Below are positions 14,646 through 37,917 of a stretch of 64,000 nt of DNA, in pieces (positions within the stretch are counted from its first letter, which is position 1; every line of letters begins with the position of its first letter). The notes beneath the pieces are model-generated. The model was given only the letters and a program-made list of their open reading frames with translations, ran no database searches and was not told the DNA's origin. Origin of the DNA: Corythoichthys intestinalis (lineage: Eukaryota); contig NC_080408.1 in the NCBI RefSeq assembly GCF_030265065.1, forward strand, positions 22,919,480-22,983,479, given 5' to 3'. Made by a program: the position numbers and the translations under genes.

Positions 14646-14696
14646 GACTTTGGCGGTAGACTTGCCGAAATGTTCCGGAAACCTGCTGTGGTGACG
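14646..14696 (+). CDS. Repeat-module gene exon 13 (basic module variant): DFGGRLAEMFRKPAVVT
   Basis: cttttttcag| acceptor, acg|gtaaca donor, 51 nt, phase 0. Confidence 0.5.
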
Positions 14697-14786
14697 GTAA
14701 CACGTTTCGACTTTTGCTTTGTTAATCATGTTTTTTTTTCCAGGCAATTCCATTCATCATAATTTGTTTTTGCATTTTGTTGTCAG

Positions 14787-14912
14787 ATGGGAAAATCAGA
14801 CAGTGATTTGGAGGAGAATGAAGACGACCAGAAAACGTCAGAACGATCGAAAGCTGGAAAAAATTTAAACCGGAAGTTCAAGAAGAAAGCTGCTGAAGCT
14901 AAGTCGGACCAG
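14787..14912 (+). CDS. Repeat-module gene exon 14: MGKSDSDLEENEDDQKTSERSKAGKNLNRKFKKKAAEAKSDQ
   Basis: gttgtcag| acceptor directly before ATG, cag|gtcaaa donor, 126 nt, phase 0. Could also serve as an alternative start exon. Confidence 0.45.
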
Positions 14913-15022
14913 GTCAAAATTCTTCTCTCTAATCGCTTGATAAAGTGCATGCATTCCGTTTTGTATTGTATTATGAATTCAGTTTTAGAATAATGATGTC
15001 AAGCTTTTCTTTCATCTTCCAG

Positions 15023-15070
15023 GAGCTGTCGGACAGTGGCGACGATCTGTCTGCGAAGCCCTCCTCAGAG
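15023..15070 (+). CDS. Repeat-module gene exon 15 (acidic linker): ELSDSGDDLSAKPSSE
   Basis: catcttccag| acceptor, gag|gtcaat donor, 48 nt, phase 0. Confidence 0.5.
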
Positions 15071-15149
15071 GTCAATGGGGCGCTTTTAGAACATTATCAT
15101 CATATTCATCGATGATGTCACCAACAACCATCCGGTTTTTACTTTGCAG

Positions 15150-15221
15150 GAAAAAGGAGGATTTTTCAGCGGCATCCTCCGCAAACCTCCCAAGATTCGT
15201 AAAGAGGCGTCACCCGAGCAG
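15150..15221 (+). CDS. Repeat-module gene exon 16 (basic module): EKGGFFSGILRKPPKIRKEASPEQ
   Basis: actttgcag| acceptor, cag|gtaaaa donor, 72 nt, phase 0. Confidence 0.6.
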
Positions 15222-15286
15222 GTAAAACACGGATTGTCTTGTACGATTTATTTGGGGCACTTGGTATTCCGTTTTTTTCCTGGTAG

Positions 15287-15346
15287 GATTCCGACGAGCT
15301 TCCCAGCGACCTTTCCGGCAATGAGGACAACCAGTTGGACAAAAAG
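15287..15346 (+). CDS. Repeat-module gene exon 17 (acidic linker): DSDELPSDLSGNEDNQLDKK
   Basis: tttttttcctggtag| acceptor, aag|gtcagg donor, 60 nt, phase 0. Confidence 0.55.
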
Positions 15347-16102
15347 GTCAGGCTTTCATTTACCATACGTCTTTTCTCAAGCCTTTATTGGGGGTATGAC
15401 AAAACAGTGGTACCTCGACATACTATCTTTTCGACATCCAAAGTAAAATTTGACTCGCCATTTGTTTCTACATCCGACGACATGCTCGAAATACGACCAC
15501 ATGACAGCGCCGCAGACGGACGCACGGCGGATTTTCTTATGAGAGAAATCAACACAGGTTTAAAAAATGTTGGTACAGGTGGTGAATCAAGGAAAAAAGT
15601 GACACTTACCATTGAAATGAAGATGCAAATGATAGAAAATATGAGTGTGTGGTGCACATCCGTGAACTGGCTCAACAATACAGCCGTAGAATGTCTACGA
15701 TTTCCACGGTCCTCCTCCGACCTCCGTTCGCAGGTCTTTAGTCTTAAGTCAAGGTGACAAATATTATTGTGGCAACATCGCCAAAGAAATCGCCGGCTTC
15801 GTAGGGTTTTTATCATTTATTTCCGAACTTGTCCAACACAACAGGCCTACTGTCCACTGCAGTTGACGGTTTTCTTAACAAAACATTAAAAGTGATCAGG
15901 TACAGCTCGTAAAACACGTCCGCCACATTAGAATCCGATTCGTTACATTATTACTGGAATTATTGTTATTTTATTATTCCGTTTTTTATTAACAATTTAT
16001 TTGTTTTGCTGTGTGTAATTGCCATTAGTAATAGTACCAGCAGTATTTATTAGGATTTCGTGTAGATTTTTGGACTGTGGAACGAATTAATGGAATTATA
16101 AT

Positions 16103-16250
16103 TAGGGCTGTCAAACGATTAAAATTTTTAATCTAGTTAATCATAGCAGAAGAATGAATTAATTGCAATTCAAACCATCTCTAAATCATGCCATATTTTT
16201 CTGCAAATTGTTGTTGGAATGGAAAGATAAGTAAAGTACTGATTGAACAA
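16103..16250 (+). mobile_element. Truncated fragment of hAT MITE family 1
   Basis: agggctgtcaaacgattaaaatttttaatc...caattcaaaccatct...gttggaatggaaagataag. Confidence 0.5.
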
Positions 16251-16419
16251 GGTGTCAATGGCGAGTTTCAAATTAATCAGAGATCTAGCCAAGGCAAAGT
16301 CTGAGTAAGTTTTATGTGTATTTTGTATAGCTATTTTGATTGGGAATGCCAGTTCTCTTTGCATTGAGCGCTTTTCTTTTTGTGAACATAATTTTTTTTA
16401 GAGATAGGAATATTATTTT

Positions 16420-16790
16420 TGATACTGTAGCAACTTAACTGTTCTGCCCAAATGCATGAGGGTAAGTTGGGCAGCCATGACTGTCAGTTGTGGCTGCAAA
16501 TGGTATACAGTATGTTCTTCGTTGTGTTCAATTAAGCGTGTTAAGAAAAAGATCATATTCCACTCTTCCCAAATGCATGATGGGAAGATGTGCAACCATG
16601 ACTGTCAGTAGTGGCTGTGAATGGTATACAGTATGATCTGCGTTGTGTTCAATTAAGCTGTTAAGAAACAGATCGTCTCCTGCTCTGCCCAAATGCATGA
16701 TGGGAAGACGTGTAACCATGACTGTCAGTAGTGGCTGCAAATGCCATACAATATATTCTGCATTGCAATTTAAATTTACTCCAGCGTCTA
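16420..16790. repeat. Minisatellite, ~120-bp unit x3, derived from internal sequence of hAT MITE family 2
   Basis: Three tandem units containing ...cccaaatgcatgatgggaag..g.aaccatgactgtcagtagtggctg.aaatg.tatacagtat... Unit resembles 12060-12170 inside the MITE at 11685-12676. Confidence 0.7.
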
Positions 16791-17303
16791 ACTTCTTTTT
16801 AGAGCCTGATTTGTTAGCGATCTGTTGACTTGTGAACCCCAACACACACCGAAGACAAAATATGTGCCTTATTGGCACTTTGCACTTGCACTTGATCCCC
16901 CCCAAAAAACTTAAGCTTGCAATATTTTGATTTCAAGAATGAATATAGTAGTAAAATGTAGGCACTTTTTCCCATAACTTAAGTTGAAGTTGTTCTCTTA
17001 CTTTTCACAGAATGTTTGTTTTATTTGGAAAACGTTGTTGTTACATGATTGAATCATCCAGTGGGGCATCACAATACAATTAGCCATAATATGTTAAGTC
17101 TATGACCGCTTATATCGCTATCGGTTTGATATCGTATTTTTGGAGATGGACAATATCGGGATATCGGTTCCTGATTAAAAAGTTATTATCGGACAACTCT
17201 TGGACTTACTATTTTATTTATTTTAATTAACTTTCTCAACTTGATTTAGTATCTTTTTCAAAGCAAGAACTGAAGTAAAAATAATAACATCTTGATTAAA
17301 AAT

Positions 17304-18141
17304 TAGGGCTGTCAAACGATTACGATTTTTAATCGAGTTAATTACAGCTTAAAAATTAATTAATCATAATTAATCGCAATTAATCGCAATTCAAACCATC
17401 TATAAAATATGCCATATTTTTCTGTAAATTATATATATATTCTGTAAAATAAATTGTTGGAATGGAAAGATAAGACACAACATGGATATATACATTCAAC
17501 ATACGGTACATAAGGACTGTAGTGGGCATTTCACTCTACTGTCATTTAAATCTGTCTATGCTGTCCTCACTCCGAAGCGTCTACTTTTTCCAAAGCTAGA
17601 CAGCTAGAGAACGACGCCTTAATAATCAGACTTCTTCCTTTTTCATCTGATTTATTAATAAAATAGCCTCAAAACATTGTCCTCTTTAGACCGTAGTAAA
17701 ACTACACAAAAAAAGTACACAAGCATTGCATCAGCAACAACGTTAGCTTAGCACGCTATACAGGTTCACTAAACATAAACAAAAAGCGTCTCATACAAAA
17801 AATATAACATTTCGTTTACTAACATAATATGTACATTCTTTACAACAACCATACTTACGGACAAATCTTGTCCAAGGATCATATAAGCACAACATTACAA
17901 CGTAGGCGTCAACCCGAGACGTCGTGCAGCCATATTGAACTGGCAAGAAAGCAATAAACCATGTTGCAAAGCGACCACAAGAGTTCGCTGTTAGACAGCA
18001 CAAAAAACCTTGCTGTAAAACATACCAAAAGGCAGAATACTGTCTGAGCGGGACATGTGCGTTAATTGCGTCAAATATTTTAACGTGATTAATTTAAAAA
18101 ATGAATTACCGCGCATTAACGCGATAATTTTGACAGCCCTA
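17304..18141 (+). mobile_element. hAT-type MITE family 1, full copy
   Basis: tagggctgtcaaacg...ttttgacagcccta with perfect 8-bp TSD TTAAAAAT (17296-17303 and 18142-18149). Confidence 0.8.
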
Positions 18142-18162
18142 TTAAAAATATCTAAAAATAAT

Positions 18163-18500
18163 TCATTCATTCATTCATTTTCCGAGACGCTTATCCTCAC
18201 GAGGGTCGCGGGGGTGCTGGAGCCAATCCCAGATATCTATGGGCAGTAGGCGGGGTACACCCTAAATCGATTGCCAGCTAATCGCACGGCACAAGGAGAC
18301 GAACAACCATTCGCGCACACACTCATACCTAGGGACAATTTAGAGTGTTCGATCATCCTACCATGCATGTTTTTGGGATGTGGGAGGAAACCGGAGTACC
18401 TGGAGAAAACCCACGCAGGAGCGCAGAGAACATGCAAACTCCACATAGGAAGGCCGGAGCCCGGGATTGAACCCTTGATCTCAGAACTTTGAGGAGGACG
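18163..18500 (+). mobile_element. SINE-like interspersed repeat common in teleost genomes (…gcttatcctcacgagggtcgcgggggtgctggagcc…tttttgggatgtgggaggaaaccggagtacctggagaaaacccacgcagg…gattgaacccttgatctcagaac)
   Basis: Recognised as a very frequent percomorph repeat consensus. Starts after (cattcatt)n. Family name not asserted. Confidence 0.5.
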
Positions 18501-18758
18501 TGCTCACCATGATAAATAAAATCCATAACAATTACAATTGACACCGCATATGTATACTAAATGCTATAGTGGCCTACATGACCCACGTTAGGGAACGACA
18601 GAAATTTGTGGGGTTAGGTTAATTTTTTTTTTTTTTAATTGCCAAAAATATGGTTAAATATTTTTTGTTTTATTTGCTGTATTTAGTTCATAAACTAAAC
18701 TGAATATATCAGTATTCAGTAATGTGCACCATGAAGTCAATCCATCATCATTCTGTAC

Positions 18759-19868
18759 TAGGCATGTGCCGGTTACCGGTTTCACGGTTTACCGTGGTGT
18801 GAAAACGTTGCGGTTTCAAAACCACTAAAATTTTCCGTCAGACCGTAGTACGGTATTCGCTTTTTTTCATGTGTCAAAAATGCAGCCGGAAGTGGCAGAA
18901 AAGGCGTTCTTTTCTTAAATTTATTGAGCTCTCAAATCCTGGTAGGTGGAATATACAAAATTAATACATTTAAAACGTTGTACAATTGTATTTTTCCATG
19001 TGTGAGCAGCTTCAACAGATTAGCACCATGAAAAAGTTCGCCAAAAACAACACACACATTTTTCTTTCAAATTCGATATACAAACTAACTGAAAGCTTAC
19101 AAAGACGAATGTTAGCCTAGACTTAGCTGGGAGAGCAACTTCGTCGAGTGTTACAGCCGCAGAGTGAGAAAACAAGCTTGATTCACTTGAATGAAGGGAA
19201 AAAACGGATATCGTCAAAGATCGTTAATTGCGAAAGATGATCTTGCCCTAAGCACAAATCCACGTTCGCTGGATCAAGGAGAGGCCGCACTCCCAATTTT
19301 TTTTTTTTTTAGATGAAACCTTTCCACAACAATATGTACATTATAACTAACTTTTACATTTTTAACTAACTTATTAACTTATGAATTATTCATGTTCTTT
19401 TTAACACAAAGGCATGACATCATGTAGACTAGAGTTGACACAGTGGCTGAAAATGGCGAAACTTCACTTGAGCTTTTCCACCCTCAAAAAAAAGTCATGC
19501 AGTATAAATTTTTTAAAAATTTATTCAGAAGTGTTTTTACTTTTTTATAGAAATTATTTTGTTCTTCCTCTAATCTTGAGCAACTTGAGCTGTGGCTGTG
19601 GGTATAGTCTATAAGTTATATTTTAATTTTATTTAAAATATGCTTTTTTAATTGATTATTTATTTATTTTAACAATATATTCATGTTCCAATTTGCAACT
19701 ATGTTCTGGAAAAAAAAAAAAAATCCTGTTCAATGGAAAAAAGTTATTTTTTTAACCCATAAATCTCAAAATAACACATTTTGGAGCTATAATTGCAATA
19801 CCGTGAAACCTCGGTATTTTTGCTCACGGTTTATCGTACCTTCAAAATCTCATACCGGCACATGCCTA
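18759..19868 (+). mobile_element. hAT-type non-autonomous element (TIR TAGGCATGTGCCGGT)
   Basis: taggcatgtgccggttaccgg...ataccggcacatgccta with perfect 8-bp TSD TTCTGTAC (18751-18758 and 19869-19876). Confidence 0.75.
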
Positions 19869-20205
19869 TTCTGTACACTGTTATAGTTACATATAGCAAC
19901 TTCTAAACAGGCTAAAAACAGGTGCAGCAGTCATTCACAGTATCGTTCACTGAATGTGATATTGAAAGATTCTGTAAATGGAAACGAGAAGCGTGTTTGT
20001 TTGAAACTTCCAATCCGACACGTTTGTTTTGACAGTTCCTTAATCTTGACAATGACAACTGATAACATTGAGGGCAAGTTTGACATTGAGATTCTTTGAG
20101 GATGCAAGAGTGTTTTCTTTCAGATTCTGTCTATGGATATTAAGCAGATAGACACGTTGTACTTTCTCTCATTCGTGACCCATGTCCTACATGTTGTTTA
20201 TCCAG

Positions 20206-20262
20206 GAGAAAGGTGGTTTGTTTAGCGGATTACTCAAGAAGACGCCCAAAGCTGGCGCTGAG
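20206..20262 (+). CDS. Repeat-module gene exon 18 (basic module): EKGGLFSGLLKKTPKAGAE
   Basis: tgtttatccag| acceptor, gag|gtacaa donor, 57 nt, phase 0. Confidence 0.6.
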
Positions 20263-21206
20263 GTACAACTTGCTTTTCCTCTCTATATCATTTAGGACGA
20301 TTGTATCATTAGTGATTGTGTTCTTTTTGATCAAGTGCATACCAGCAGAAAGAATTTTGTTTAAGAGTTCACATAGTTTTTTCTGCTGTTTAATACTTGA
20401 AAAACGCTTCAATAAGGCCAATTTTTAATGCTAGCGGTAATTTAGCCAATCAGATGAAAGTATTTCAGATATTCCGCCATTGCTCGTGATGTCAGATACA
20501 CCCAAAAATTCATGTGCTATTGCGACGGCAATGTTTACATGCAAGTCATCACTTCTATACTCACATATATATACACCAATTTTGCTCGAACAAAAACAAT
20601 ATATGACAAGGAGAATGTTGTGTATTTTGTCCTAATCATGTCACTGTAGGTGAGACTTCTTGCCAAAATTTCATTTGGTGTGGCGATCTTACTCCTTTGT
20701 AGCAATGATACAGTCATTTCATACACAGATTTTACTCGGAAAAATGGCATAAAGAAAATCTATTCTATTCTCTCTATTCTATTAATTCTATCTTGATCGC
20801 TTACGCAGATTCTTTCTTCAATGAAGACACTAAAACCAATGTTGGCTCGGCTTGGCTAGGCTCAAAACTGGCTGCAGCCGCTCCCGCATCCAATACATAA
20901 TTTTAGAAAAGATGAACCACTGAACTTCAATCGCTATTTTAATTTGCCTCGCGGCCCAAATAATCTTGGCCCTAATTTGCTTGCGGCAAAAGAGAATTCG
21001 GGTGTATCTGACGTCACATTTGTTCCAAAATTTTAACAGCTAAGGTTTCCATTTTGATAGTTAAAACAATATTTTTTCTCATTATCATGGTTCTAAAAAA
21101 TTCATAATTTGCATATTTAGATTCTTTGAGCAACCATCTTTGACATGGTCATTTGTACTAAAAGATTACTATTGCTTTATGCACTGAATCCAAAGTTTGA
21201 TTTCAG

Positions 21207-21275
21207 GAGAACTTGAGCGCGCAAAAAGAGTTGTCAGCGAGCAACGACAGTCTGTCCGATGTCACGAAAACTAAA
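21207..21275 (+). CDS. Repeat-module gene exon 19 (acidic linker): ENLSAQKELSASNDSLSDVTKTK
   Basis: tttgatttcag| acceptor, aaa|gtgagt donor, 69 nt, phase 0. Confidence 0.55.
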
Positions 21276-22610: not shown

Positions 22611-22737
22611 CTCACGTGACGTCACTGCCACGCCCCCGCGCCATGTTGTCCGTATACTCGTCATGTTAATGCATTAGCGCTTCGTAAAATCCTCCTATTA
22701 TGGCGTGTTTTTCTGCTCGTTAACATTAATAATCAAA

Positions 22738-22918
22738 ATGGTGATGTCGTGTGTGGCGGTCGGTTGCAAAAACAGAGAAGATAGACGGAGAGACTTGAAG
22801 TTTTACCGTATTCCGAGAGACCTGGAGAGGAGACCGAGATTGACTGCTGCAGTTCGACGAGAAAACTGGGCTCCAAACGACTACCACAGATTATGTAGTA
22901 GTCATTTTATATCTGGTA
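22738..22918 (+). CDS. THAP-type zinc-finger domain exon (C2CH), transposon-derived or nested gene, within an intron of the repeat-module gene
   Basis: MVMSCVAVGCKNREDRRRDLKFYRIPRDLERRPRLTAAVRRENWAPNDYHRLCSSHFISG|gtaag. C-x2-C ... W ... LCSxHF matches the THAP signature. Ends at a GT donor. GC-box/CRE-like sequence lies just upstream (22600-22660). Confidence 0.55.
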
Positions 22919-24454
22919 AGATGCATTTAATATATATTTAGAGGGTTTTGGGCTGACAACCACAATTAAGATCATTGCTAGGCTAATCGCCGACAACACT
23001 CAGACGTTGTGAATGAACTACCTGAAAATATATAATTATAAGGGCATAATCAGACAGTTGTCATACACTTAATTTACAATTTCACTATTGAGGTCAAAAG
23101 CCAAAAAATAAATTCAACTAGGGACAATCTGGAGTAGTGCTATCGCACTTCATATTTATTACATATTATATTTGTATGTAGTGAGAGTGCTATCGCTAAA
23201 CCATATAAATATTAAAAGCCCTAGCTCCATTGACAAATGACATGAAATACATTAGGCTTGACAGTGGATGTTAGCAAGAACAAAAGATTTTGAATTGAAA
23301 ATTTTGTAACTCACCTTCCGAGCACAAGATTCCTGCCGAATTTTCGTGTACGAGAGGACCTGTTTCACCCAACCAGCAACGTAGCATTTATAAGCCTCCA
23401 AGCTCTTAAAGTTTTTCAAACTTTCGTGAGAATAGGCTGATTTTGTGTGGACAAGATAGTTGTAAATATCAGGGTCAGGCAGAGACGGCGAAGGCAGCGG
23501 GTTGAAAAAAATCGATTTAGGCATCAAATACGGATCTGGTGAACGGATAAACTGAAGCTTTTCCACGTAATGCCTTTTATGCAACGCATCCAATGAGTTT
23601 ACAGCGTCAGATAACACCGGGGCTTCCATGAATTGCTCTATAACTTGCACGACTAATTGAAAACAATGAGAATAGGTCTAAAAAATAGGTACAATATGGC
23701 GGCCGGATACAGCGACACGTCATTTAGTGACGTAGGTGAGTCGGGTCTATAGCCAGGTGTTCCTTATAGTGCTAAAACTAGGGTAGTTATAAAGCAAAAA
23801 TATGTATGGGATGAAAGGGAAACATCTTATCTTGAACGGGAGGTTGGAATTTGGGCTGTTTGGGTTTTTATTGAACTGGGTAGATTTTGCTGTGATTAGG
23901 CGGGGTACTGTGTGGGTATCAGCTTTCAACACTGTTATTGTAAACTGTTGGAGAAATTTTACAACATGCTAACTCATGATATTCCTTCCTTATGTTATTC
24001 TGATTTGATGTTGCCTTATGCATTAATGTTACATAAAACAGTTCCAATGATGTTTGTATGTGGCACAGTTCTTGTACCTTTGAACTGACTGTGTGGGACC
24101 ACTCTGTGATTAGTGTGATTGGAAGTCTGAGTGGATGAATCAATGATTATATCAATCAAGAACTGAGGGTAGCTCAGTGTACTGTAAACATGTACAGTAT
24201 GAGTGAGTATTCTGTAGACCTGCTCAGTTACAAGTGGCTGTATTGTATGTTAATTTCCTCCTGCCCCTTGTCAAATAATGGAGTAGTGGCGAGTGGCGGT
24301 GTTCAGAGCAAGCTGATCAAGCATTTTGAGCTGAACCCTGCTGCCAGCTTCTCTCTAGAAAGTCCAAACCTACCTCCCTGTCTGTGTTTCTTGCCAAAGT
24401 TGGGTGAAATAAATCTAATTTAAACTAACACCATATTTTGGGTCCCTGTTTCAG

Positions 24455-24526
24455 GAGAAGGGAAGCGCATTCAGTGGAATGTTCAAGAAGTCACCCAAAA
24501 CAAGCGACGCATCCAACACAGAAGAA
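24455..24526 (+). CDS. Repeat-module gene exon 20 (basic module): EKGSAFSGMFKKSPKTSDASNTEE
   Basis: ctgtttcag| acceptor, gaa|gtaaga donor, 72 nt, phase 0. Confidence 0.6.
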
Positions 24527-25848: not shown

Positions 25849-25917
25849 GTGAGCAAACAGCCACAAGACGACGAGCGGTCAGTGGGCAGCGACGGACCTT
25901 CGGAGGAAAATTACAAG
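25849..25917 (+). CDS. Repeat-module gene exon 21: VSKQPQDDERSVGSDGPSEENYK
   Basis: ttttgtccag| acceptor, aag|gtgact donor, 69 nt, phase 0. Confidence 0.45.
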
Positions 25918-25989
25918 GTGACTTTTTTTCCCTCATCTTTGATGAAGGAAATCCATTGGTAGGAAAGTGATGATAAAAATCTGTTTTAG

Positions 25990-26052
25990 GAAAAGGGAGG
26001 AATATTTGGTGGATTCTTCAAGAAAGCTGCTAAAGCGCTTCAGCCTGAACAA
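25990..26052 (+). CDS. Repeat-module gene exon 22 (basic module): EKGGIFGGFFKKAAKALQPEQ
   Basis: ctgttttag| acceptor, caa|gtaaat donor, 63 nt, phase 0. Confidence 0.6.
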
Positions 26053-27421: not shown

Positions 27422-27481
27422 GATGAGAACTTGGATAAGAAGTTGTCAGCCAGCAGTGAGAATTTATCTGAGGGAAAAGCG
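27422..27481 (+). CDS. Repeat-module gene exon 23 (acidic linker): DENLDKKLSASSENLSEGKA
   Basis: ctttttttgcag| acceptor, gcg|gtacat donor, 60 nt, phase 0. Confidence 0.55.
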
Positions 27482-27583
27482 GTACATTATTGAACATTTT
27501 ATATTTCTGTATCAAATTCTATATTGTGTTTGGATATTGCCAACGTGATTTTTGTTGTTGTTGTTGTTGTTGTTTGGGATCAG

Positions 27584-27652
27584 GAGAAAGAGCGAGGGCT
27601 GTTTGGTGTTTTCTTGAAGAAGACTCCCAAAGGAGAGCGGGCTGATTCATCA
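27584..27652 (+). CDS. Repeat-module gene exon 24 (basic module): EKERGLFGVFLKKTPKGERADSS
   Basis: tgtttgggatcag| acceptor, tca|gtgagt donor, 69 nt, phase 0. Confidence 0.6.
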
Positions 27653-27723
27653 GTGAGTTATTTCCTTTGTAATTTTGTTTTCTTATTCTTCCCCATTCTA
27701 ATGGAGCGATGTCCTGATTTGAG

Positions 27724-27804
27724 GATGACGAAGAAGACAAGGAGAGGGCGGCCACAACTGCAGCAGCGGTCGGCGACGACGCCACTGAGAAGCACGTGAC
27801 CAAG
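27724..27804 (+). CDS. Repeat-module gene exon 25: DDEEDKERAATTAAAVGDDATEKHVTK
   Basis: cctgatttgag| acceptor, aag|gtaacc donor, 81 nt, phase 0. Confidence 0.45.
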
Positions 27805-27956
27805 GTAACCCAAAACGGCTGATGTCATCCCAAGGAGGAGTTTGCTACAGAAAACACTAAATTAGTTATTAATTTAACATTAATGTACCGTATTTGTCAG
27901 ACTATAAGTCGCAGTTTTTTTTCATAGTTTGGCTGGGGTGCGACATACTCTGGAGT

Positions 27957-29741
27957 AGGCCTGAACGATATTGGAAAAAACTATTGCTGCGATTTTTTTG
28001 GGGTTTGCGATATATTGCGATATTATATTGCGATATTAAAAAAATATTAGGGTAATTAATTTTTTAAATTAATCACGTTAAAATATTTGACGCAATTAAC
28101 GCACGTCCCGCTCAGACAGTATTCTGCCTTTTGGTATGTTTTACAGCAAGGTTTTTTGTGCTGTCTAACAGCGAACTCTTGTGGTCGCTTTGCGACATGG
28201 TTTATTGCTTTCTTGCCAGTTCAATATGGCTGCACGACGTCTCGGGCTGACGCCTACGTTGTAATGTTGTGCTTATATGATCCTTGGACAAGATTTGTCC
28301 GTAAGTATGGTTGTTGTAAAGAATGTACATATTATGTTAGTAAGCGAAATGTTATATTTTTTGTATGAGACGCTTTTTGTTTATGTTTAGTGAACCTGTA
28401 TAGCGTGCTAAGCTAATGTTGTTGCTAATGCAATGCTTGTGTACTTTTTTTGTGTAGTTTTACTACGGTCTAAAGAGGACAATGTTTTGAGGCCATTTTA
28501 TTAATAAATCAGATGAAAAAGGAAGAAGTCTGATGATTAAGGCGTCGTTCACTAGCTGTCTAGCTTTGGAAAAAGTAGACGCTTCGGAGTGAGGACAGCA
28601 TAGACAGATTTAAATGACAGTAGAGTGAAATGCCCACTACAGTCCTTATGTACCGTATGTTGAATGTATATATCCATCTTGTGTCTTATCTTTCCATTCC
28701 AACAATTTATTTTACAGAATATATATATAATTTACAGAAAAATATGGCATATTTTATAGATGGTTTGAATTGCGATTAATTGCGATTAATTACGATTAAT
28801 TAATTTTTAAGCTGTAATTAACTCGATTAAAAAATTTTATCGTTTGACAGCCCTAAAAAATATATATATATATATTTTAAAAGACATTTTTACTAGATGA
28901 CTTGAATGGCTCTTTGGAAAGACTTTGGATGACTCATCATGACCACAGTGTACAGTATTCCATCGTTTTTCGCGGTTAATAGGGACCAGAACCCGCCGCG
29001 ATAAGTGAAAAACCGCGAAGTAGCCCCCCCCCCCATTTTTGTTGTGTGTGTGTGTGCTCAATGTATTTATTCAGATCTAGCACTGGAAAGAGATACATAT
29101 AAGACATGTTTTTTCTTCACTTTTTCCCCCCAAAGTATGATTTAAAAAAAAAAAAATATATATATATATATATATATTTTTTTTTTTACTAATAAATGCT
29201 TTTTAAGCACTTTAAATGTAATAATTATGATCAGTTTTAAACATGACTGTCCTACTGAATCATTTTTAAACAAGAATAAAGTACTGTAGTAGAAAAATGC
29301 TTGGCTTTATTAAATGCTTTTGTTTACCTAACATGGCTGTGACTCTTAGAGTGACATGTTGAAATTACAAACTCCTCATAATCACTTCTGGCGTTTATTT
29401 TATATGTCTCGAACGTCTCCACATTCTCCCCCCACAGACACACACATTCATTCCAGCCAGCGCTCCTTTGCAGAAACTGTTTAACAAGTTAAACAGTTTG
29501 ATTGACAGATTGCTGCCAGGCTTCTTTGACCAGATCAAAGCCATCGTTAACTTTAATAAGCAAGTGCTGCAGTGACTGAGAGCTGGGAAAGGGGGTGAGA
29601 GAGGCTGTGCGAGCGAATGAAGCAGATCAAGCGATGGGGATCAGAAAAAAAAACAAAAAAACTATCGCACGTCCTTGCGATGGGACTATCGCGCATGCGC
29701 ACATCGCGATGGCGATGTTTAAACGATATATCGTTCAGGCT
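27957..29741 (+). mobile_element. Nested element with TIR AGGCCTGAACGATAT / ATATCGTTCAGGCT and ~10-bp TSD (TACTCTGGAG). It carries the hAT MITE 28048-28855 and other fragments.
   Basis: Termini and flanking duplication (27946-27955 and 29742-29751) seen directly. 9-10-bp TSD is compatible with a Mutator-like element, but superfamily unproven. Confidence 0.5.
28048..28855 (-). mobile_element. hAT-type MITE family 1 copy (with a small 5' internal deletion)
   Basis: tagggtaattaatt...cgtttgacagcccta, perfect 8-bp TSD AAAAATAT (28040-28047 and 28856-28863). Confidence 0.75.
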
Positions 29742-30217
29742 TACTCTGGAGCAACTTATGTGTGAAATTATTAACACATTATAATATTTCACATGTTATT
29801 TTGGTGTTTCAGAGTGACACTGATGATTTAGTAAACTTGTTAGCAGGTTCTTTATGCCATAGTTATCTGAATAACTCTTAATAGCTATGTTACCGGCCAC
29901 GTTCGCATTTCATTGTTCATGCATCATGTAACATTATCAAACTGTACACTTATTCAGCATGTTGTTCTCTATTGCATTTTTATTTTAAATTGCCTTTCAA
30001 GATGACATATCTGTTCTATGTGTTGGATTTTATCAAGTAAATTTCCCCCAAAAATGCGACTTATACTCTGGTGCGACTTATATGTTTTTTTTTTTTCTTC
30101 ATTGCACATTTTTGGGCTGGTGTGACTTTTACTCAGGTGCGACTTATAGTCCGAAAAATATGGTAGGTAGTTGATATATATAATATAGGTAGTTGATATA
30201 TATACTGTATATATATA

Positions 30218-30590
30218 TTAGGGCTGTCAAACGATTAAAATTTTTAATCGAGTTAATTACAGCTTAAAAATTAATTAATCGTAATTAATCGCAATTAATC
30301 GCAATTCAAACCATCTATAAAATATGCCATATTTTTCTGTAAATTATTGTTGGAATGGAAAGATAAGACAAGATGGATATATACATTCAACATACGGTAC
30401 ATAAGGACTGTATTTGTTTATTATAACAATAAATCAACAAGATGGCATTAACATTATTAACATTCTGTTAAAGTGATCCATGGATAAAGTGTTATATTAA
30501 AACGCCTCTTAATGTTTTCGTTTTAATGAAATTTGTAAAATTTTCAATCAAAAAATAAACTAGTAGCCCTATTCTGTCCTCAATGTGTGT
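30218..30590 (+). mobile_element. hAT MITE family 1, truncated copy
   Basis: attagggctgtcaaacgattaaaatttttaatcgagttaattacagc... continuing ~370 bp, then diverges. Confidence 0.55.
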
Positions 30591-30989
30591 GAGTACACAA
30601 ATTGACAGATAGCGAACATAAGTTCCAAAAAGAAATCAGACGGTGTGGCAAAGTTGCATGGGCTTTACTGAAGTCATCTCTTTTTGACAGGAGCACGTTT
30701 CTTGTATTTTTGTAAAACTTAAAATAACAAGGCAATGTGTCAATAACTTGCATAAATCACAAAATAACATAAAATGTACACACACGTGTCCATTTGAGCA
30801 GTAGCACTAGCCAATTAGCTCGCAAGCATCTAACAATGTAACTGCATTTCACCATATATGTGAACAAATTCAAATACACATCATCAATAACTATCTAATG
30901 CTCATGAATATAAACAAAGGAGGAATATAACTCACAAGCGATGCATGTATTAGACACAAACAGTGTGATGGGGCTATGAGAACTGCCAC

Positions 30990-31742
30990 TGAATACTGGA
31001 TGCGGACGTTAGCTGGTCTGAATAGCACTGTCTATTAGTGTGAGTTCACGTCGACATATAATCACGTCAGAAAAGCGCGCCGAAACCCAAATAATCCGCT
31101 GCACTGAATCGCCAGCAGAGGGCGACATTACGCCACATAACATATGCAAGTCACACCCAAGCGCCAGCAGAGGGCGGAAAAACTCCATAAAACACAATTA
31201 ACAAGTTGGCCTTTCACTGTACTGACATTTAAATCTGTCTGAGCGGGCATAGTTTTGGAGCTTTTTGGAGTTTTGTTGCCCTCTGCTGGCACTTGGGTGC
31301 GACTGATTTTATGGGCTTAAGCACCCATGAGCATTGTGTAATTATTGACGTCAACAATGGGGGGCTACTAGTTTATTTTGTGATTGAAAATGTTACAAAT
31401 TTTATTAAAACGAAAACATTAAGAGGGGTTTTAATATAAAATTTCTATAACTTGTACTAACATTTATCTTTTAAGAACTACAAGTCTTTCTATCCATGGA
31501 TCGCTTTAACAGAATGTTAATAATGTTAATGCCATCTTGTTGATTTATTGTTATAATAAACAAATACAGTATTTATGTACCGTATGTTGAATGTATATAT
31601 CCATCTTGTGTCTTATCTTTCCATTCCAACAATAATTTACAGAAATATATGGCATATTTTATAGATGGTTTAAATTGGGATTAATTACGATTAATTAATT
31701 TCTAAACTGTAATTAACTAAAAATTTTAATCGTTTGACAGCC

Positions 31743-31745: not shown

Positions 31746-31780
<35 letters not shown>

Positions 31781-32289: not shown

Positions 32290-32640
32290 CTTACTTCTAC
32301 TCAACTACAATTACTTATACTGTTAGTATTGTACTTATGTGTACTGGTATTGGAGGCATGTGTACTTAAGTGTACTTGTACTATACTTGCGTGTACTTGT
32401 ACTACAGGTACGTGTACTTGCGTGTGCTTGTACCACAAGTACGTGTACTTGCATGTACTTGTACTAAAGGTGCGTCTACTTGCGTGTCCTTGTACTATAC
32501 TTACATGTACTTGCGTGTACTTGCACTACATGTGAAAAATTCCTTTTTTTACTTTCCCATACCAGTAAAAAACATAGGTGTACTTCTGTTTACTTCTACT
32601 ACAAGTAGGTGTACATGCGTGTACTAGGAGTTTACCGACC
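32290..32640. repeat. Minisatellite, ~30-bp unit (GTACTTGCGTGTACTTGTACTACAGGTAC-like) x ~10
   Basis: Visible tandem periodicity of gtacttg / gtgtacttg blocks. Confidence 0.8.
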
Positions 32641-32901
32641 AGCGCTACCGATGCAGTTTCTCCAGAAATTGATTTTTTAGTTCAATTTAATGTTTTCTTT
32701 TGCCTCCCTCAATGAATAGTAGTGAACTTGTAGCATTATTATTATTATTATTTTTTTTAATCATATTCTAATTGAAATACATATGAAAAAGTAACCTCTC
32801 CCCATTTTTTTTTTCAATTGCATTTGTGTCAATTTAAATCCACACCAAGCACAGTACGTATTAGTTGTTGTGTTAACGTTCATTTTTGTCTCCCCCTGCA
32901 G

Positions 32902-32952
32902 GACAAAAACATTTTCAGCAACATGTTCAAGAAGCCTACAGAGGGCGACAAG
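32902..32952 (+). CDS. Repeat-module gene exon 26 (basic module, truncated): DKNIFSNMFKKPTEGDK
   Basis: tccccctgcag| acceptor, aag|gtgcct donor, 51 nt, phase 0. Confidence 0.55.
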
Positions 32953-33115
32953 GTGCCTTCATTGCTTCATTGCTGCTAAGTGATGGTTTTATTAGCTTTT
33001 ATAGTTCCATTGACGTCGATAGACATCCAATTATGAGGCCTTGAATTTAAATTAGTTTGTCACTAGTAGACAACATTGGCAACCAATGACTTAACGATTC
33101 TGATTGATTGTTCAG

Positions 33116-33184
33116 GATGGGGAAGCAAAAAGTGAAGCAGCGGCATTCGGGAGTTCGGAGAATTTGTCCGAAAACGTCCCTAAG
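33116..33184 (+). CDS. Repeat-module gene exon 27 (acidic linker): DGEAKSEAAAFGSSENLSENVPK
   Basis: ttgattgttcag| acceptor, aag|gtatta donor, 69 nt, phase 0. Confidence 0.55.
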
Positions 33185-33257
33185 GTATTAAAAACCATCT
33201 TCATTTTGCATGTCTTTGATTTTTCTTTGGTTTTTGAGCCAAATAGTGTACTTTTAG

Positions 33258-33323
33258 GGCAAAAAAGGAGGTCTGGCCGGCATCTTCAAAAGATCTTACA
33301 GTAACGACAACGAGGTGGATGAG
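33258..33323 (+). CDS. Repeat-module gene exon 28 (basic module variant): GKKGGLAGIFKRSYSNDNEVDE
   Basis: tacttttag| acceptor, gag|gtcagt donor, 66 nt, phase 0. Confidence 0.55.
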
Positions 33324-33402
33324 GTCAGTCTCACTTTTTGTACAATGTGAGCCTTCCGTGTCTGGCCACGCTTTTGTGATCCTAACATATTTTTCCATAT
33401 AG

Positions 33403-33474
33403 GAGAAAGGTGGACTCTTCAGCGGCCTGAAGAAAACCACAACGAAAGCATCTGCAGATGACGAAGCTACAGGG
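33403..33474 (+). CDS. Repeat-module gene exon 29 (basic module): EKGGLFSGLKKTTTKASADDEATG
   Basis: ttttccatatag| acceptor, ggg|gtgaga donor, 72 nt, phase 0. Confidence 0.6.
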
Positions 33475-33562
33475 GTGAGATAGCGGTCATGGCACTCCAA
33501 GTTAAACACATCTTGGCACCTAAATATGACAGGACAGAAAACATCTGTTTTTGTAATCACAG

Positions 33563-33610
33563 GACAAGGAGAAGTCCTCGAGTAACGACAATCTGTCGGA
33601 AAAGCCCAAG
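33563..33610 (+). CDS. Repeat-module gene exon 30 (acidic linker): DKEKSSSNDNLSEKPK
   Basis: tgtaatcacag| acceptor, aag|gtaagg donor, 48 nt, phase 0. Confidence 0.55.
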
Positions 33611-34366
33611 GTAAGGCAAAAGGGAACGCAAAGAGAGAATCAAATATCCGCATCAGAGATGATCATTCTCCCTTAACTTTTTTTTGTTATTTAAAGTATT
33701 TTACAATTTCATTTTACTTTTAATTTGCTTAAAAAAGATTACCATATTTTTGGCACTAAAAATTGCAGTTTTTTTTTTCATAGTTTGACCGTGGGTGCGA
33801 TTTATACTCTGGAGCGATTTATGTGTGAAATTATTCACACATTATTACAGTGATCCCTTGTTTTTCCTGGTTAATGGGGACGAGAACCCGCTGCAATAAG
33901 TGAAAAACCACAAAATAGCTGTTTTTTAAAGTGCCTGTGACACGAAAAAGCATGTTTATTTCATAATACACACGGTATTTTATGCCCCTGAATGATATGG
34001 GCCGCTTGGATGTGTGTGGAAGCGATCGCTATTTTTATTTAGTTTTTTGAATCCCGCGCCATGAAAATGAGTGACTTCCGGCTTCGGTCTTGCATTGAGG
34101 AGGAGGGCGCTGTGACGTGTGCGGTAGAAGACGTCCTCTTCACGCTACAGTGTACTGTTGTGTATGAGAACGAAGGATTCAGCTGATTTTGCGGATTAAT
34201 ACGTTTATTTTTCGCATCACGCCAGCCAAACGGCTGCAGAAAAATCATTCTGTATGAGGGAGAGGCGTATGCGCCTTTTTGGAATTTCAAAAGGTTCCCA
34301 TTCACCGTGGATATTTACTGTGGGACCATTGGACTTACGAGGAATTGAGTAAACATCTTGTTTTGT

Positions 34367-35370
34367 ATTACCGTATTTTTCGGACTATAAGTCGCGGTTT
34401 TTTTCATATTTTGGCTGGGGGTGCGACTTATACTCAGGAGCGACTTATGTGTGGAATTATTAACACATTATGATATAATTTCACATATTATTTTGGTGTT
34501 TTGCAGTGTCACTAATGGTTTTGTAAAGTTGTTAGCATGTTCTTATGCTATAGTTATCTGAATAACTCTTTATAGCTATGGCCACGTTCGCGTTCTGCCT
34601 TTGGCAGTGTATGTTCAATTGTATTATTGACTTTTTTATCTTGAAATGGATGCATTTAGTTTGTGGCGCTTTCACGCCCACGTAAGGGCGCCCTCGCACT
34701 TGTTTATGTGACACGCCAGAAGAAGACGGACAGCTACGTAGCTCTGAGTGAGTGAGGGGCGAGTTAGCGAGAGAGAATAGACGGCTGCGAACCTACTTTC
34801 ATTGTTTATGCTTTTAAATCATCTCTACAGAGGCAACGCCTGCGTGTATCATCTTTTCTGTTGTTGTTGTGTGTTTTCCACCTGCGATCGGACACTTAGA
34901 GCCAGTTGTGTGGTTGTTTGAACGATGTGCTAATGATAGCGAACGCATGCTAACCTGTTACTTATTACTAATAGTACCTAATTATCATTTATTTACGTTG
35001 ATGCGAACCTGTTTTCTATCGAGGACCAAATTGATTCAGCAAATTATACGGACGTCCAGCATTGTCTTTTGGGAGTTCGCTGTATAGCCAGGACAGGCCG
35101 TAGCGTAGGACAGTATATTCACATTTCGTTGTTCATGCACTGTACACTGCACATTTATTTAGCATGTTGTTCTCTATTGTATTTTTATATTAAATTGCCT
35201 TTCAAGATGACATGTCTGTTCTATGTGTTGGATTTTATCAAGTAAATCTCCCCCAAAAATTCGACTTATACTCCGGTGCGACTTGTATATGTTTTTTTTC
35301 TCTTCGTTGGGCATTTTATGGCTGGATCGACTTATACTCAGGAGCGACTTGTAGTCCGAAAAATACGGTA
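34367..35370 (+). mobile_element. TA-target MITE (~1 kb), intact reference copy; TIR TACCGTATTTTTCGGACTATAAGTCGC
   Basis: taccgtatttttcggactataagtcgc...gcgacttgtagtccgaaaaatacggta flanked by TA. Other copies at 27886-30165 (split) and 55632-58792 (with two nested insertions). Partial at 33735-33845. Confidence 0.7.
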
Positions 35371-36913
35371 TGTCAAATACGAATACAGCGATTACAAAGT
35401 AGACACTACAAACTTCCTTTAAATGAAGGACTACTTACGTTTGATCATTGATAGTCATGTAAAAAGCTCTCCTAATGCTCATTAGCAGCAGCATGTTAGC
35501 TGGACAACAACTCCAGCCACCCTCCTCCGGGGAACGAACTGTAAATTGCTCTCCGCCGGGCGGTTTGCCGATCCGCGAAGACAATCGACAACCGGGTCGT
35601 CATGTCAAATAATCCAGGATAGTTATGTGTGATTTTCTGCTTCGAAGACTTTGAAACATCACTCGGTTCGGGTTAGCATGTCGGCTAGCTGTTACGCCTT
35701 CTGGTTTGTTTACATTCTCCGAAGCCGGGGAAGGAAAATGACATATGTCCGATTTAGGTGTCATAAAATATCGTTCAGGAGGTGCGACAGTAAAGGTGAA
35801 GTCGACAGTTTTGACCATTATGGAGTAATTTTGCCATGTCGTCCTGAATAAATGCATTTTTATTATTTCATATTCCATTCATATTCCATGTTATTTGTCA
35901 TGACCATGCCATTTATTTAGCAATTGGGGAAAATACTTGGATAAAAAGAATATCCTGTAAAAATATTGAAGTAAAGAGACAGAAACAATGACATTTTGCC
36001 GCTCTCTTCGTCGCGTTTTCCTCGTTGTGAATAGTTCCCCCTCGACGGGCTAACTGGTCCTTCTCAAGCCATTTATATAGCTATTGGGGAAAAATACTTG
36101 GATAAAAAGAATATCCTGTAAAAATATTGGAGTAGAGAGACTGAAACAATGACATTTTCCGGCTCTCTTCCTCGCGTTTTCCTCGTTCTGAATAATTCCC
36201 CCTCAATGGGCTGAATAGTAAAACCGATGAACCCAGTCTACCGCTGACGTCATCCACCTGTTGGGGACGCTAAAGCCCTATAATGGTTGGCGTGGCTAAC
36301 CGGCAGATTAAAAGACTAATTTCTCGTCATCTGTGCTTTGCTAAATTGTTGTATATAGTCGAATCGTCTCAAAATATGATTCTAATTCACATAATAATGC
36401 CATTTAAGACTTTTTTTCTCGTGTCGTATGCTCTTTAAGCACTTTAAATGTACACCTGTTTGTTTCTGGTGCGCACCAGATGGTTTAAATTTATTTTATT
36501 TCTGTACAATATTTATTTGGGTGCAAAGTTTTTTGTGACATATTTAGTTTAAAATATTTTGTTTTAAATTTATATTTAGAACAAATATTTTCTTTTTATT
36601 ATTTATTCTTTTTACTCGTAAACATTTTAAAATGAACTCTTAGTTTTAACTTGTTTTTCAACATTTTTATTCATAATTTGTAAATATCTTTTAATTAAAT
36701 GAACTTCAAGATGTTTTGTAAAATATTCAGATTTTTGTTACCTTTTCCGTTTCAAATTATAAGGAAAAAAAATCAAGATTTTTTTTTTTTTGCAACAATT
36801 TAAAAATATTACATGTAGACATATTTTTTCAGTATTTTAATGTTTTAACTGCACTGAAAATTTGATTTTTTTTTTTTAAATACTGTTTTTAAAAAAAAAT
36901 CTTTTCCCTCAAG

Positions 36914-36982
36914 GAAAAAAGCATTTTCAGTGGAATGTTCAAGAAAGCACCGAAAGCAGCAGATGAGGCCGCAGTTGATGAG
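36914..36982 (+). CDS. Repeat-module gene exon 31 (basic module): EKSIFSGMFKKAPKAADEAAVDE
   Basis: cttttccctcaag| acceptor, gag|gtaggt donor, 69 nt, phase 0. Confidence 0.6.
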
Positions 36983-37093
36983 GTAGGTGACCGACTACCC
37001 AAGAGAGAATTTTTTAAAAATCAAATTATTATTAGTAGTATTAGTAGTGGTAGCATCCATGCCGTTTCACTGTAATTATTTTTTTCTGAGCAG

Positions 37094-37168
37094 GAGTCCA
37101 ACAGCGGACAGGACAAGAACTTATTATCTGCAAGCAATGAAAACCTGACCGAAGAAAACGCTCCAAAA
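37094..37168 (+). CDS. Repeat-module gene exon 32 (acidic linker): ESNSGQDKNLLSASNENLTEENAPK
   Basis: tttttctgagcag| acceptor, aaa|gtacaa donor, 75 nt, phase 0. Confidence 0.55.
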
Positions 37169-37237
37169 GTACAAATGTAGTTGACAGATGTTGCTAGGAT
37201 TATTTTCCACTTTTCTAACACAATATTTTGTTACCAG

Positions 37238-37309
37238 GAAAAGACTGGAGGTCTGGCAGGAATGTTCAAAAAGTCACCCAAACCGGCGCCACGCTCCGTC
37301 GTCAACAAG
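37238..37309 (+). CDS. Repeat-module gene exon 33 (basic module): EKTGGLAGMFKKSPKPAPRSVVNK
   Basis: ttttgttaccag| acceptor, aag|gtgact donor, 72 nt, phase 0. Confidence 0.6.
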
Positions 37310-37402
37310 GTGACTTTGACGCCCAGTGTTCTCATTCTTTCTTTTTTTTTTTTTTTTTTTTAATGAGAAAATGGTGGAAACTGACATCAACTTTGTTTTT
37401 AG

Positions 37403-37441
37403 GATCCTCTCAGTGATGCCAAGGATGCAGAAAGTGACAAG
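37403..37441 (+). CDS. Repeat-module gene exon 34: DPLSDAKDAESDK
   Basis: ctttgtttttag| acceptor, aag|gtaaat donor, 39 nt, phase 0. Confidence 0.45.
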
Positions 37442-37663
37442 GTAAATTACCGGAGTAGAGGCGATAGGAGGAAAATCTACAATCGTCAACAAATACAACA
37501 ATAGCCATTTACTGTATTATTTTTGTATTTCACAATAGCCTTTGTCAATTTTTGTCATTTTAAGCAAACTTCCCTTTTTATTTTAAATAACATTTGGAAC
37601 AATTATTCTCTTTGGGTTTCATTAAGTCTTTATTATTGGTCTTTTTTATTTTTTTTCCCTAAG

Positions 37664-37726
37664 GACGACTTGTCAGGTGACGAACTATCAGGTGATGCTG
37701 TCATTCTTGAAGCTGCCACTGCAAAA
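37664..37726 (+). CDS. Repeat-module gene exon 35: DDLSGDELSGDAVILEAATAK
   Basis: ttttttccctaag| acceptor, aaa|gtgagt donor, 63 nt, phase 0. Confidence 0.5.
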
Positions 37727-37857
37727 GTGAGTACACGATACACTATGTACATACATATACTAGTACAGTATGTCTTAAGTATGCCTTTCAGCGTCAGGAA
37801 AAAAAACAAAATGTCAGAACATACTGAACCGCATTACTGCATGTTCATGTTGAGCAG

Positions 37858-37917
37858 GAGAAAAAGGGAGGCTTCGCCGGAATGTTCAAGAGGACGCCCA
37901 AAACCGCTGACAAACAG
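37858..37917 (+). CDS. Repeat-module gene exon 36 (basic module): EKKGGFAGMFKRTPKTADKQ
   Basis: catgttgagcag| acceptor, cag|gttagg donor, 60 nt, phase 0. Confidence 0.6.

Follow-up and report, generated by a model that had tools for sequence, protein, structure and literature searches.

We analysed a stretch of 64,000 nucleotides (nt) of the syngnathid fish Corythoichthys intestinalis (contig NC_080408.1, positions 22,919,480 to 22,983,479), referred to below as the window; positions are given relative to its first letter. The plus strand of the window carries a predicted gene from 6928 to 48297 with 42 coding exons and one intact open reading frame (ORF) of 1,529 amino acids (aa). Both ends of the gene were found by TBLASTN of teleost homologues against the window, which gave an ATG at 6928 and a large ORF at 46332–48297. 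Exons 12–35 (14646–37917) form an array of 24 small exons in which a basic and an acidic type alternate, and the last exon encodes an apolipoprotein L (ApoL) domain.

The exon array and the complete gene model

All 24 exons of the array are located on the plus strand, have canonical AG/GT borders and are in phase 0-0. The basic exons carry the motif [KE]KGG-phi-F-S/G-G-phi-F-K-K-x-P-K, or EKGG[LIF]F[SG]G[LM]FKKxPK written out, and the Ser-rich acidic exons the motif L-S-A-S-N-D/E-S/N-L-S/T-D/E, each on a phase 0-0 micro-exon of its own. From exon 12 to exon 35 the order of basic (B) and acidic (A) exons is B, (A+B fused), A, B, A, B, A, B, A, B, A, B, A, B, A, B, B, A, B, A, B, A, A, B. Only exons 27/28 (basic-basic) and 33/34 (acidic-acidic) break the alternation, and the sign of the net charge switches from exon to exon along with the type.

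The first-pass annotation of this DNA had listed 14 exon starts (15023, 15150, 15287, 20206, 21207, 24455, 27422, 27584, 33116, 33258, 33563, 36914, 37094 and 37238), assigned them to two alternating classes and proposed phase 0 throughout. All 14 were confirmed as open plus-strand segments with a polypyrimidine tract and AG before them, GT after them and a length that is a multiple of three. Ten further array exons start at 14646, 14787, 25849, 25990, 27724, 32902, 33403, 37403, 37664 and 37858, respectively. The two classes were upheld for all 24 exons with the two exceptions given above. Phase 0 was likewise upheld, for the array as well as for coding exons 1–39 as a whole, which range from 27 to 126 nt, have canonical splice sites and show phase 0-0 borders only. 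The gain, loss or skipping of any of these exons thus leaves the reading frame intact, as had been claimed for the units of the array.

The array starts with a degenerate basic module (DFGGRLAEMFRKPAVVT; exon 12, 14646–14696). In exon 13 (14787–14912) an acidic part (DSDLEENEDD) is fused to a degenerate basic one (AGKNLNRKFKKK); the Syngnathoides orthologue of this exon retains AGGIFNGIFKKK. These are followed by the acidic exon 14 (ELSDSGDDLSAKPSSE, 15023–15070), the basic exon 15 (EKGGFFSGILRKPPKIRKEASPEQ, 15150–15221), the acidic exon 16 (DSDELPSDLSGNEDNQLDKK, 15287–15346), the basic exon 17 (EKGGLFSGLLKKTPKAGAE, 20206–20262), the acidic exon 18 (ENLSAQKELSASNDSLSDVTKTK, 21207–21275) and the basic exon 19 (EKGSAFSGMFKKSPKTSDASNTEE, 24455–24526). 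Exon 20 (VSKQPQDDERSVGSDGPSEENYK, 25849–25917) is acidic but without the LSASN motif. Next are the basic exon 21 (EKGGIFGGFFKKAAKALQPEQ, 25990–26052), the acidic exon 22 (DENLDKKLSASSENLSEGKA, 27422–27481), the basic exon 23 (EKERGLFGVFLKKTPKGERADSS, 27584–27652), the acidic and Ala-rich exon 24 (DDEEDKERAATTAAAVGDDATEKHVTK, 27724–27804), the basic exon 25 (DKNIFSNMFKKPTEGDK, 32902–32952) and the acidic exon 26 (DGEAKSEAAAFGSSENLSENVPK, 33116–33184).

The basic exons 27 (GKKGGLAGIFKRSYSNDNEVDE, 33258–33323) and 28 (EKGGLFSGLKKTTTKASADDEATG, 33403–33474) are direct neighbours. The Syngnathoides protein model lacks exon 28, for which there are positional counterparts in Dunckerocampus, Solea and Scomber. 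Alternation resumes with the acidic exon 29 (DKEKSSSNDNLSEKPK, 33563–33610), the basic exon 30 (EKSIFSGMFKKAPKAADEAAVDE, 36914–36982), the acidic exon 31 (ESNSGQDKNLLSASNENLTEENAPK, 37094–37168) and the basic exon 32 (EKTGGLAGMFKKSPKPAPRSVVNK, 37238–37309). Two acidic exons, the short exon 33 (DPLSDAKDAESDK, 37403–37441) and exon 34 (DDLSGDELSGDAVILEAATAK, 37664–37726), precede the last, basic module in exon 35 (EKKGGFAGMFKRTPKTADKQ, 37858–37917).

A six-frame search for G-G-phi-F-S/G-G-phi-F/L-K-K and S-A/S-S-N/S-E/D-N/S-L-S/T-E/D found both motifs on the plus strand only. Additionally, all phase-0 segments consisting of AG, an open frame of 30–180 nt and GT were scanned with regular expressions (~3,700–3,900 segments per strand). 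On the plus strand this yielded 24 basic-type and 51 acidic-type candidates, nested versions of approximately nine loci per type, and on the minus strand 0 candidates of either type.

Upstream of the array, coding exon 1 (6928–6975) contains the start codon and MESCMTKPEAKKKTRP, ends in phase 0 and encodes an N-terminus that is kept in orthologues. Exons 2 and 3 (7064–7090, 7159–7227) are proline-rich (PPWPPE and PPRP). A non-repeat N-terminal region is encoded by exons 4–7 (10260–10310, 10398–10478, 10558–10608, 10670–10717) and 8–11 (10801–10866, 11261–11329, 11407–11451, 11520–11636). Downstream of the array, exons 36 and 37 (40859–40942, 41015–41071) encode the polybasic stretch RRRKTIKKKRR and IVSFRIK, and exons 38 and 39 (43004–43066, 43198–43272) a conserved acidic segment in front of the ApoL domain. 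Exons 40 and 41, which encode the LLEWWNNVEGWAEWNE segment, are the first in the gene that depart from phase 0 (45129–45168, ending in phase 1; 45258–45309, ending in phase 2).

Exon 42 (46332–48297) encodes the ApoL domain (PF05461), followed by a K/E/R/S-rich tail of ~370 aa and the stop codon. The Pfam match had an E-value of 1.3e-32 and covered profile positions 46–297 of 298; its 113.9 bits (cutoff 25.9) exceed the Pfam gathering threshold, which makes the protein a member of the ApoL family. A tandem repeat of 63 nt (1.9 copies, 82% matches) is located within the part of exon 42 that encodes the tail (48103–48221, plus strand) and encodes Arg/Glu/Ser units of the DRERRES type. At the junction of exons 36 and 37, RRRKTIKKKRR is followed by R-IVSF-R. 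This stretch resembles a nuclear localisation signal and is conserved in Hippocampus as KKKRRVVSFRVK; its R-IVSF-R part presumably fits the RVxF-type PP1-docking consensus.

Orthologues, selection and expression

The concatenated array exons retrieved a protein of Syngnathoides biaculeatus with 57% identity over 100% of the query. Homology searches with the array exons returned teleost proteins only, from eels to percomorphs, and in several of these homologues, which bear the name 'apolipoprotein L domain containing 1a', the modules are fused to an ApoL domain. In BLASTP the complete 1,529-aa protein could be aligned over its entire length with six full-length teleost proteins (41–59% identity), among them the orthologues of Dunckerocampus (1,467 aa, 59%), Solea (48%) as well as Osmerus, Sardina and Takifugu (41–44%).

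The window gene shares with the long isoforms of teleost apold1a a collinear order of an ME.C..KPE.KKK N-terminus, the module array, a WW segment in front of the ApoL domain, the ApoL domain itself and a charged tail. Such entries include Sardina pilchardus XP_062386586.1, Osmerus eperlanus XP_062338498.1 and Dunckerocampus dactyliophorus XP_054624444.1. Most likely, judged from these alignments, the window gene is the syngnathid orthologue of this long teleost ApoL-domain protein, called apold1a in some pipelines. Entries of this group are automatic predictions under uninformative or misleading names such as 'titin homolog', 'nucleolar protein dao-5-like', 'claspin-like' and 'dentin matrix acidic phosphoprotein 1-like', and none of them describes the module. 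A tie to the vertebrate APOLD1 (VERGE) orthology group would be given solely by the database name 'apold1a'.

To determine the extent of the family, a unit profile of 42 columns was built from 33 units, with the two window-derived rows left out. HMMER matched it to 102 proteins at E<=0.001 among 1.84 billion representative proteins, and names were looked up for 41 of these. Within that search and those 41 names, the two-part module was not found in any other named family. The full-unit matches among the named proteins were all from teleosts, namely Anguilliformes, Notacanthiformes, Clupeiformes, Siluriformes, Osmeriformes, Gadiformes and many percomorphs. Two paralogue groups could be distinguished by their N-terminus, which is ME.C..KPE.KKK in the group of the window gene and MDRYDNLDLDLECE in that of the tandem paralogue; both groups have ApoL domains. 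Up to 17–18 stretches per protein were matched. Furthermore, a search with the ApoL domain listed only teleosts and no tetrapod among its best 120 matches. A word-indexed search with the 42-column unit alignment gave no matches, as the sequences are too short for the index.

The profile also matched giant repeat proteins of Caenorhabditis nigoni and Bursaphelenchus xylophilus and one ankyrin of 4,917 aa. The giant invertebrate proteins contain 18–24 copies of 'ITGLFKKSPSH' or 'IVGMFKRTPAH' inside repeats of ~90 aa. We did not accept the nematode and ankyrin proteins as family members, since they match only the basic 'GLFKKSP' half and this in unrelated repeats of ~90 aa; on these grounds the resemblance was treated as convergent and may reflect convergence on the same short motif. 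Pfam had no family at E<=0.01 for the 427-aa array and none at E<=1 for the orthologues, apart from a faint composite match to SPAR_C in one Albula protein. FG-nucleoporin repeats and WH2 motifs, considered on account of GLFG-like and LKKT-like strings, were rejected as neither the array nor the orthologues had a Pfam match.

More than 30 of the profile matches contain an ApoL domain. This bears on the question whether array and ApoL exon are two genes, the array being a stand-alone disordered protein of ~750 aa and the fused models an annotation read-through. Two proteins are indeed annotated at the Syngnathoides biaculeatus locus, one of 729 aa with the repeats and one of 711 aa with the ApoL domain, models of Hippocampus zosterae (559–582 aa) stop before the ApoL exon, and short ApoL-only entries are numerous, many databases holding no longer form. 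However, the split models run into an intron at their end (...KEVRVRFI, ...EEVCVRRHHPH). Exons 36–41 are conserved and in frame, and with phases that fit on both sides they link the array and the ApoL exon. Moreover, more than 30 proteins possess both the N-terminal and the ApoL part, and named teleost species account for at least 13 of these. We therefore regard two genes as improbable; an internal promoter that gives rise to a short isoform, or separate transcription of array and ApoL exon, is conceivable.

BLASTN of the window against the loci of Dunckerocampus and Syngnathoides revealed conserved blocks in collinear order. Of those located between 6.9 and 48.3 kb, all but three (two with Dunckerocampus, one with Syngnathoides) overlap predicted exons, and the introns are unconserved. 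For the array and its Syngnathoides counterpart, 458 aligned codons gave a synonymous distance (dS) of 0.66, a nonsynonymous distance (dN) of 0.14 and a dN/dS of 0.22 by the Nei-Gojobori method, where the local alignment lowers the dN estimate somewhat. Similar dN/dS values were obtained for the flanking parts of the gene and against Dunckerocampus. It is well supported by these values that the array is maintained by purifying selection.

Expression is documented for the paralogue. The Logan contig SRR28040489_39012 (1,747 nt) contains seven consecutive units of the paralogue in a single intron-free ORF and thus represents a spliced transcript, which shows that arrays of this kind are expressed. 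That the motif segments are chance open frames or decayed, unexpressed pseudo-exons is effectively refuted. The degenerate basic motif of exon 13 and the absence of exon 28 from one orthologue model would agree with decay, but approximately 18 plus-strand loci stand against 0 minus-strand candidates, splice sites are canonical and frames intact throughout the exons, the conservation is exon-specific at the dN/dS given above, and the spliced paralogue transcript exists.

Differences by whole units or single exons are present in predicted isoforms of other species. Between the apold1a isoforms X1 (1,533 aa) and X3 (1,488 aa) of Osmerus eperlanus the difference amounts to precisely one acidic+basic unit, or 45 aa, and isoforms X5–X7 have two to three units fewer. 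In an isoform of the Pseudoliparis paralogue one acidic exon is skipped. The isoform models of Hippocampus zosterae use the orthologue of exon 8 as a cassette and swap duplicated N-terminal exons. The suggestion that units are spliced as cassettes gains from the Osmerus and Pseudoliparis models, all of which are computational RefSeq models; cassette use is plausible on this basis. In Hippocampus zosterae an N-terminal exon block is seemingly duplicated (SKLPPWPPE.../SILPRWHPE...); models X1–X11 mix both copies and are without orthologues of window exons 12–21.

The order of upstream ApoL paralogue, window gene and downstream minus-strand RhoGAP gene is the same in Syngnathoides. An exon at 740–1708 (plus strand) is the last exon of the tandem upstream paralogue and encodes a second ApoL domain (Pfam E=6e-36), which is 41% identical to that of exon 42. 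At the DNA level this exon is 87% identical to positions 4069–5065 of the Syngnathoides locus. The paralogue belongs to group 'b' with the second type of N-terminus in other fish, and its own module array is located upstream of the window. Two large coding exons of the minus-strand neighbour (52452–54794 and 58939–59523) are syntenic with a RhoGAP-domain gene at 27502–31669 of the Syngnathoides locus. A 780-aa ORF of this neighbour consists of about ten diverged copies of a ~60-aa unit (VTPSLRDxPLKEVRSD...) with many off-diagonal BLASTN matches; it had no Pfam match.

Origin of the array

The first-pass annotation had attributed the array to tandem duplication and proposed residual similarity between the introns of the units as a test. 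In the window this similarity was absent. Self-BLASTN of the region from 6 to 49 kb gave 86 repeat pairs, of which 85 are wholly intronic and resemble dispersed transposon copies; the sole exon-exon match at the DNA level is 33 nt long and connects exons 19 and 30. Tandem Repeats Finder (TRF) detected intronic satellites only and no tandem structure involving exons. A recent tandem duplication within the window is ruled out by both analyses, as no introns are shared. The duplications are thus old. Loss of intron similarity dates the events in this species only and cannot refute an old duplication.

Such an age fits the distribution of the exons. Most array exons are collinear one to one with those of other syngnathids and partly with those of Solea and Scomber, and this positional correspondence fades in Osmerus, Sardina and moray eel.

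In the orthologous locus of Albula glossodonta the process can be followed directly. Here, both exon types and the associated introns lie in blocks of 1.1–1.6 kb that are repeated at 93–95% identity with offsets of 1,355, 2,031 and 3,412 bp, and an older layer at ~78–80% identity is present as well. Units of the two tandem paralogues of Albula are 91–94% identical, introns included. These repeats identify tandem duplication of the exon pair as the mechanism, and the proposed origin is in this respect supported. It is well supported that the array grew through successive tandem duplications, each copying an acidic+basic exon pair along with its introns, and that these events predate the split of the a and b paralogues and mostly also the divergence of the percomorphs. 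Just upstream of the young exon-pair block, an intron of the Albula locus is filled by a 54-bp satellite with 94 copies and 92% matches (positions 13623–18696 of that locus).

The window gene spans ~41 kb compared to ~21 kb in Dunckerocampus, and its long introns are filled with dispersed repeats and transposons. Two copies of an 808-bp element are present in opposite orientation in introns 16 and 24 (17303–18110 and 28051–28856); they are 98% identical and thus represent recent insertions. Remnants of transposon-type ORFs were found at 14050–14421 and 22705–22941 (plus strand) as well as 39125–39616 and 60861–61211 (minus strand). These comprise Tc1/mariner HTH and DDE_3 fragments, a Spin-doc zinc finger remnant (E=2e-8) just upstream of exon 12 and a THAP domain (E=7e-11) in intron 18.

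Properties of the arm and comparison with known systems

The encoded array of ~530 residues is of low complexity, with a charged fraction of 0.38 and a net charge per residue of -0.03; the sign of the charge changes from block to block with a period of ~45 aa. AlphaFold2 on the unit alignment gave a mean predicted local distance difference test score (pLDDT) of 62, no fold and no secondary structure on the basic motif. This agrees with disorder, and the array very probably forms a long, disordered N-terminal arm in the cytoplasm. Across 33–35 units from 19 proteins, the acidic motif never varies at S9, S11 and L15, and more than 90% of the basic motifs keep the Gly that precedes the second hydrophobic pair.

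The hydrophobic core of the basic motif has only 8–9 residues with 2–4 Lys/Arg and is bracketed by Gly-Gly and Pro. The calmodulin-type amphipathic helix suggested in the first-pass annotation is unlikely, given the shortness of this core between Gly-Gly and Pro and the lack of an AlphaFold2 helix. For the same reasons, and in the absence of a Pfam match, a MARCKS-like or calmodulin-binding helix of ~20–25 highly basic aa was rejected. As to membrane binding, every basic exon forms a local basic-hydrophobic peak, but the scores of 0.35–0.66 are only borderline on a reconstructed version of the scale of Brzeska et al. 2010, with its usual threshold of 0.6. The highest score of the protein, 1.28, was obtained for the polybasic RRRKTIKKKRR-IVSF stretch of exons 36–37. 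Clustering of CK2-type phosphosites, also suggested earlier, was rejected by shuffling: 17 [ST]-x-x-[DE] sites were observed compared to 16.8 +/- 3.4 in 2,000 shuffles, and 6 sites of the strict form compared to 3.4 (P=0.13).

Our best guess is a sticker-spacer arm that is multivalent and splice-tunable. The basic motifs would be numerous weak 'stickers' that bind acidic membranes or a partner with a hydrophobic groove. The acidic motifs would separate the stickers or balance their charge within the molecule, and phosphorylation could modulate them. Exon inclusion and lineage-specific duplication would tune the number of stickers, and the C-terminal ApoL domain would anchor the arm at the membrane.

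As an alternative, the modules could be short linear motifs for a specific protein partner and not for membranes, which would make the array a multivalent adaptor. The basic core F-x-x-[LM]-F, which we take to resemble the FxxLF motif, would then be of the groove-binding type, and the acidic S-x-S-x-x-S-L-S would be a phospho-dependent docking or regulatory site. The invariant and nearly invariant positions go far beyond composition, the bracketing of the core by Gly-Gly and Pro without a predicted stable structure is typical of short linear motifs, and the dN/dS of the array agrees as well. On the other side, no known motif family was matched, with no Pfam match beyond the faint SPAR_C one. 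We consider this explanation possible but clearly the weaker one.

Less likely still, the array could be a blocky polyampholyte in which charge patterning and aromatic stickers drive condensation or provide a tether of an entropic or elastic kind, as an intracellular parallel to the 'sequence style' of tropoelastin. This would be in agreement with the alternating charge blocks and the nearly balanced charge, with a number of units that differs by lineage, with deep lineages that lose positional orthology yet keep the style, and with a similar gene logic in tropoelastin (PMC12554196). However, within percomorphs the individual exons are conserved position by position, which points to constraint at the level of the motif as well as of the collective.

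Taken as a whole, we consider it probable that the locus holds one ApoL-domain gene, with an array that goes back to old exon-pair duplications and is kept by selection; the sticker-spacer function would be the weaker part of this explanation. Several points weigh against this. The Syngnathoides annotation treats array and ApoL exon as two separate genes, the short ApoL-only proteins and a possible internal promoter have been mentioned above, and the isoform sets are computational models from other species. Single basic modules carry only 3–4 basic residues and score at or below the usual threshold, and CK2-type sites are not enriched. Literature searches on apold1a and the module motif strings found no paper describing the module, and a paper on APOL evolution (PMC8557400) does not mention the long forms of fish.

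A more far-reaching proposal would see the teleost arm as a multivalent electrostatic switch, with membrane tethering or condensates set by unit number and phosphorylation, and as an undescribed protein repeat family. This is rather speculative.

The gene architecture itself is of an already known kind, and no long-standing question is settled by the array. The present case is uncharacterised, being predicted but mislabelled by pipelines. A teleost-wide ApoL-domain gene is hidden under misleading automatic names and often split into two models, which matters for the annotation of fish genomes. Outside the genes of the extracellular matrix, the array provides a clean second case in which exons of two types alternate to encode a disordered region. 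The single intron phase lets exon-pair duplication, ongoing in Albula, and splicing alter the number of motifs while the frame is kept.

Mammalian APOLD1 (VERGE), after which the teleost genes were named, has an ApoL-type membrane-inserting domain in common with the window gene. Human APOLD1 is a short two-exon protein of ~279 aa that is not known to have a repeat arm. Fish apold1a/b carry ~850 extra N-terminal residues, and this bears on the use of zebrafish apold1a/b as a model of human APOLD1. The mammalian protein is endothelial and located at cell contacts and Weibel-Palade bodies (PMC9973481).

The effector domains of the MARCKS type share with the basic modules Lys/Arg among Phe/Leu, a disordered context and phosphorylatable Ser nearby. 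They differ in having ~13 basic residues, compared to 3–4 per fish module with its borderline scores.

The closest likeness in gene structure is to tropoelastin. There, cross-linking and hydrophobic exons alternate, all with phase 1-1 borders, and a 'replicated region' arose by exon-pair replication, with further recent replications in some lineages and frequent cassette-like splicing (PMC12554196). Exons 12–35 likewise show two alternating exon classes with one domain per exon, apart from the two exceptions, and one uniform intron phase, which is 0-0 instead of 1-1. Replication of exon pairs together with their introns was seen in the orthologous Albula locus, whereas the window retains no intron similarity; cassette splicing would have a possible parallel in the whole-unit and single-exon differences between the computational RefSeq models of Osmerus and Pseudoliparis. 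The sequences are unrelated. Tropoelastin is secreted into the matrix and has hydrophobic and Lys cross-linking domains, and the fish array, with its basic-aromatic and acidic-Ser motifs, is predicted to form the cytoplasmic arm of a membrane protein. If the electrostatic switch were real, the array would represent an intracellular counterpart of the exon-pair logic of tropoelastin.

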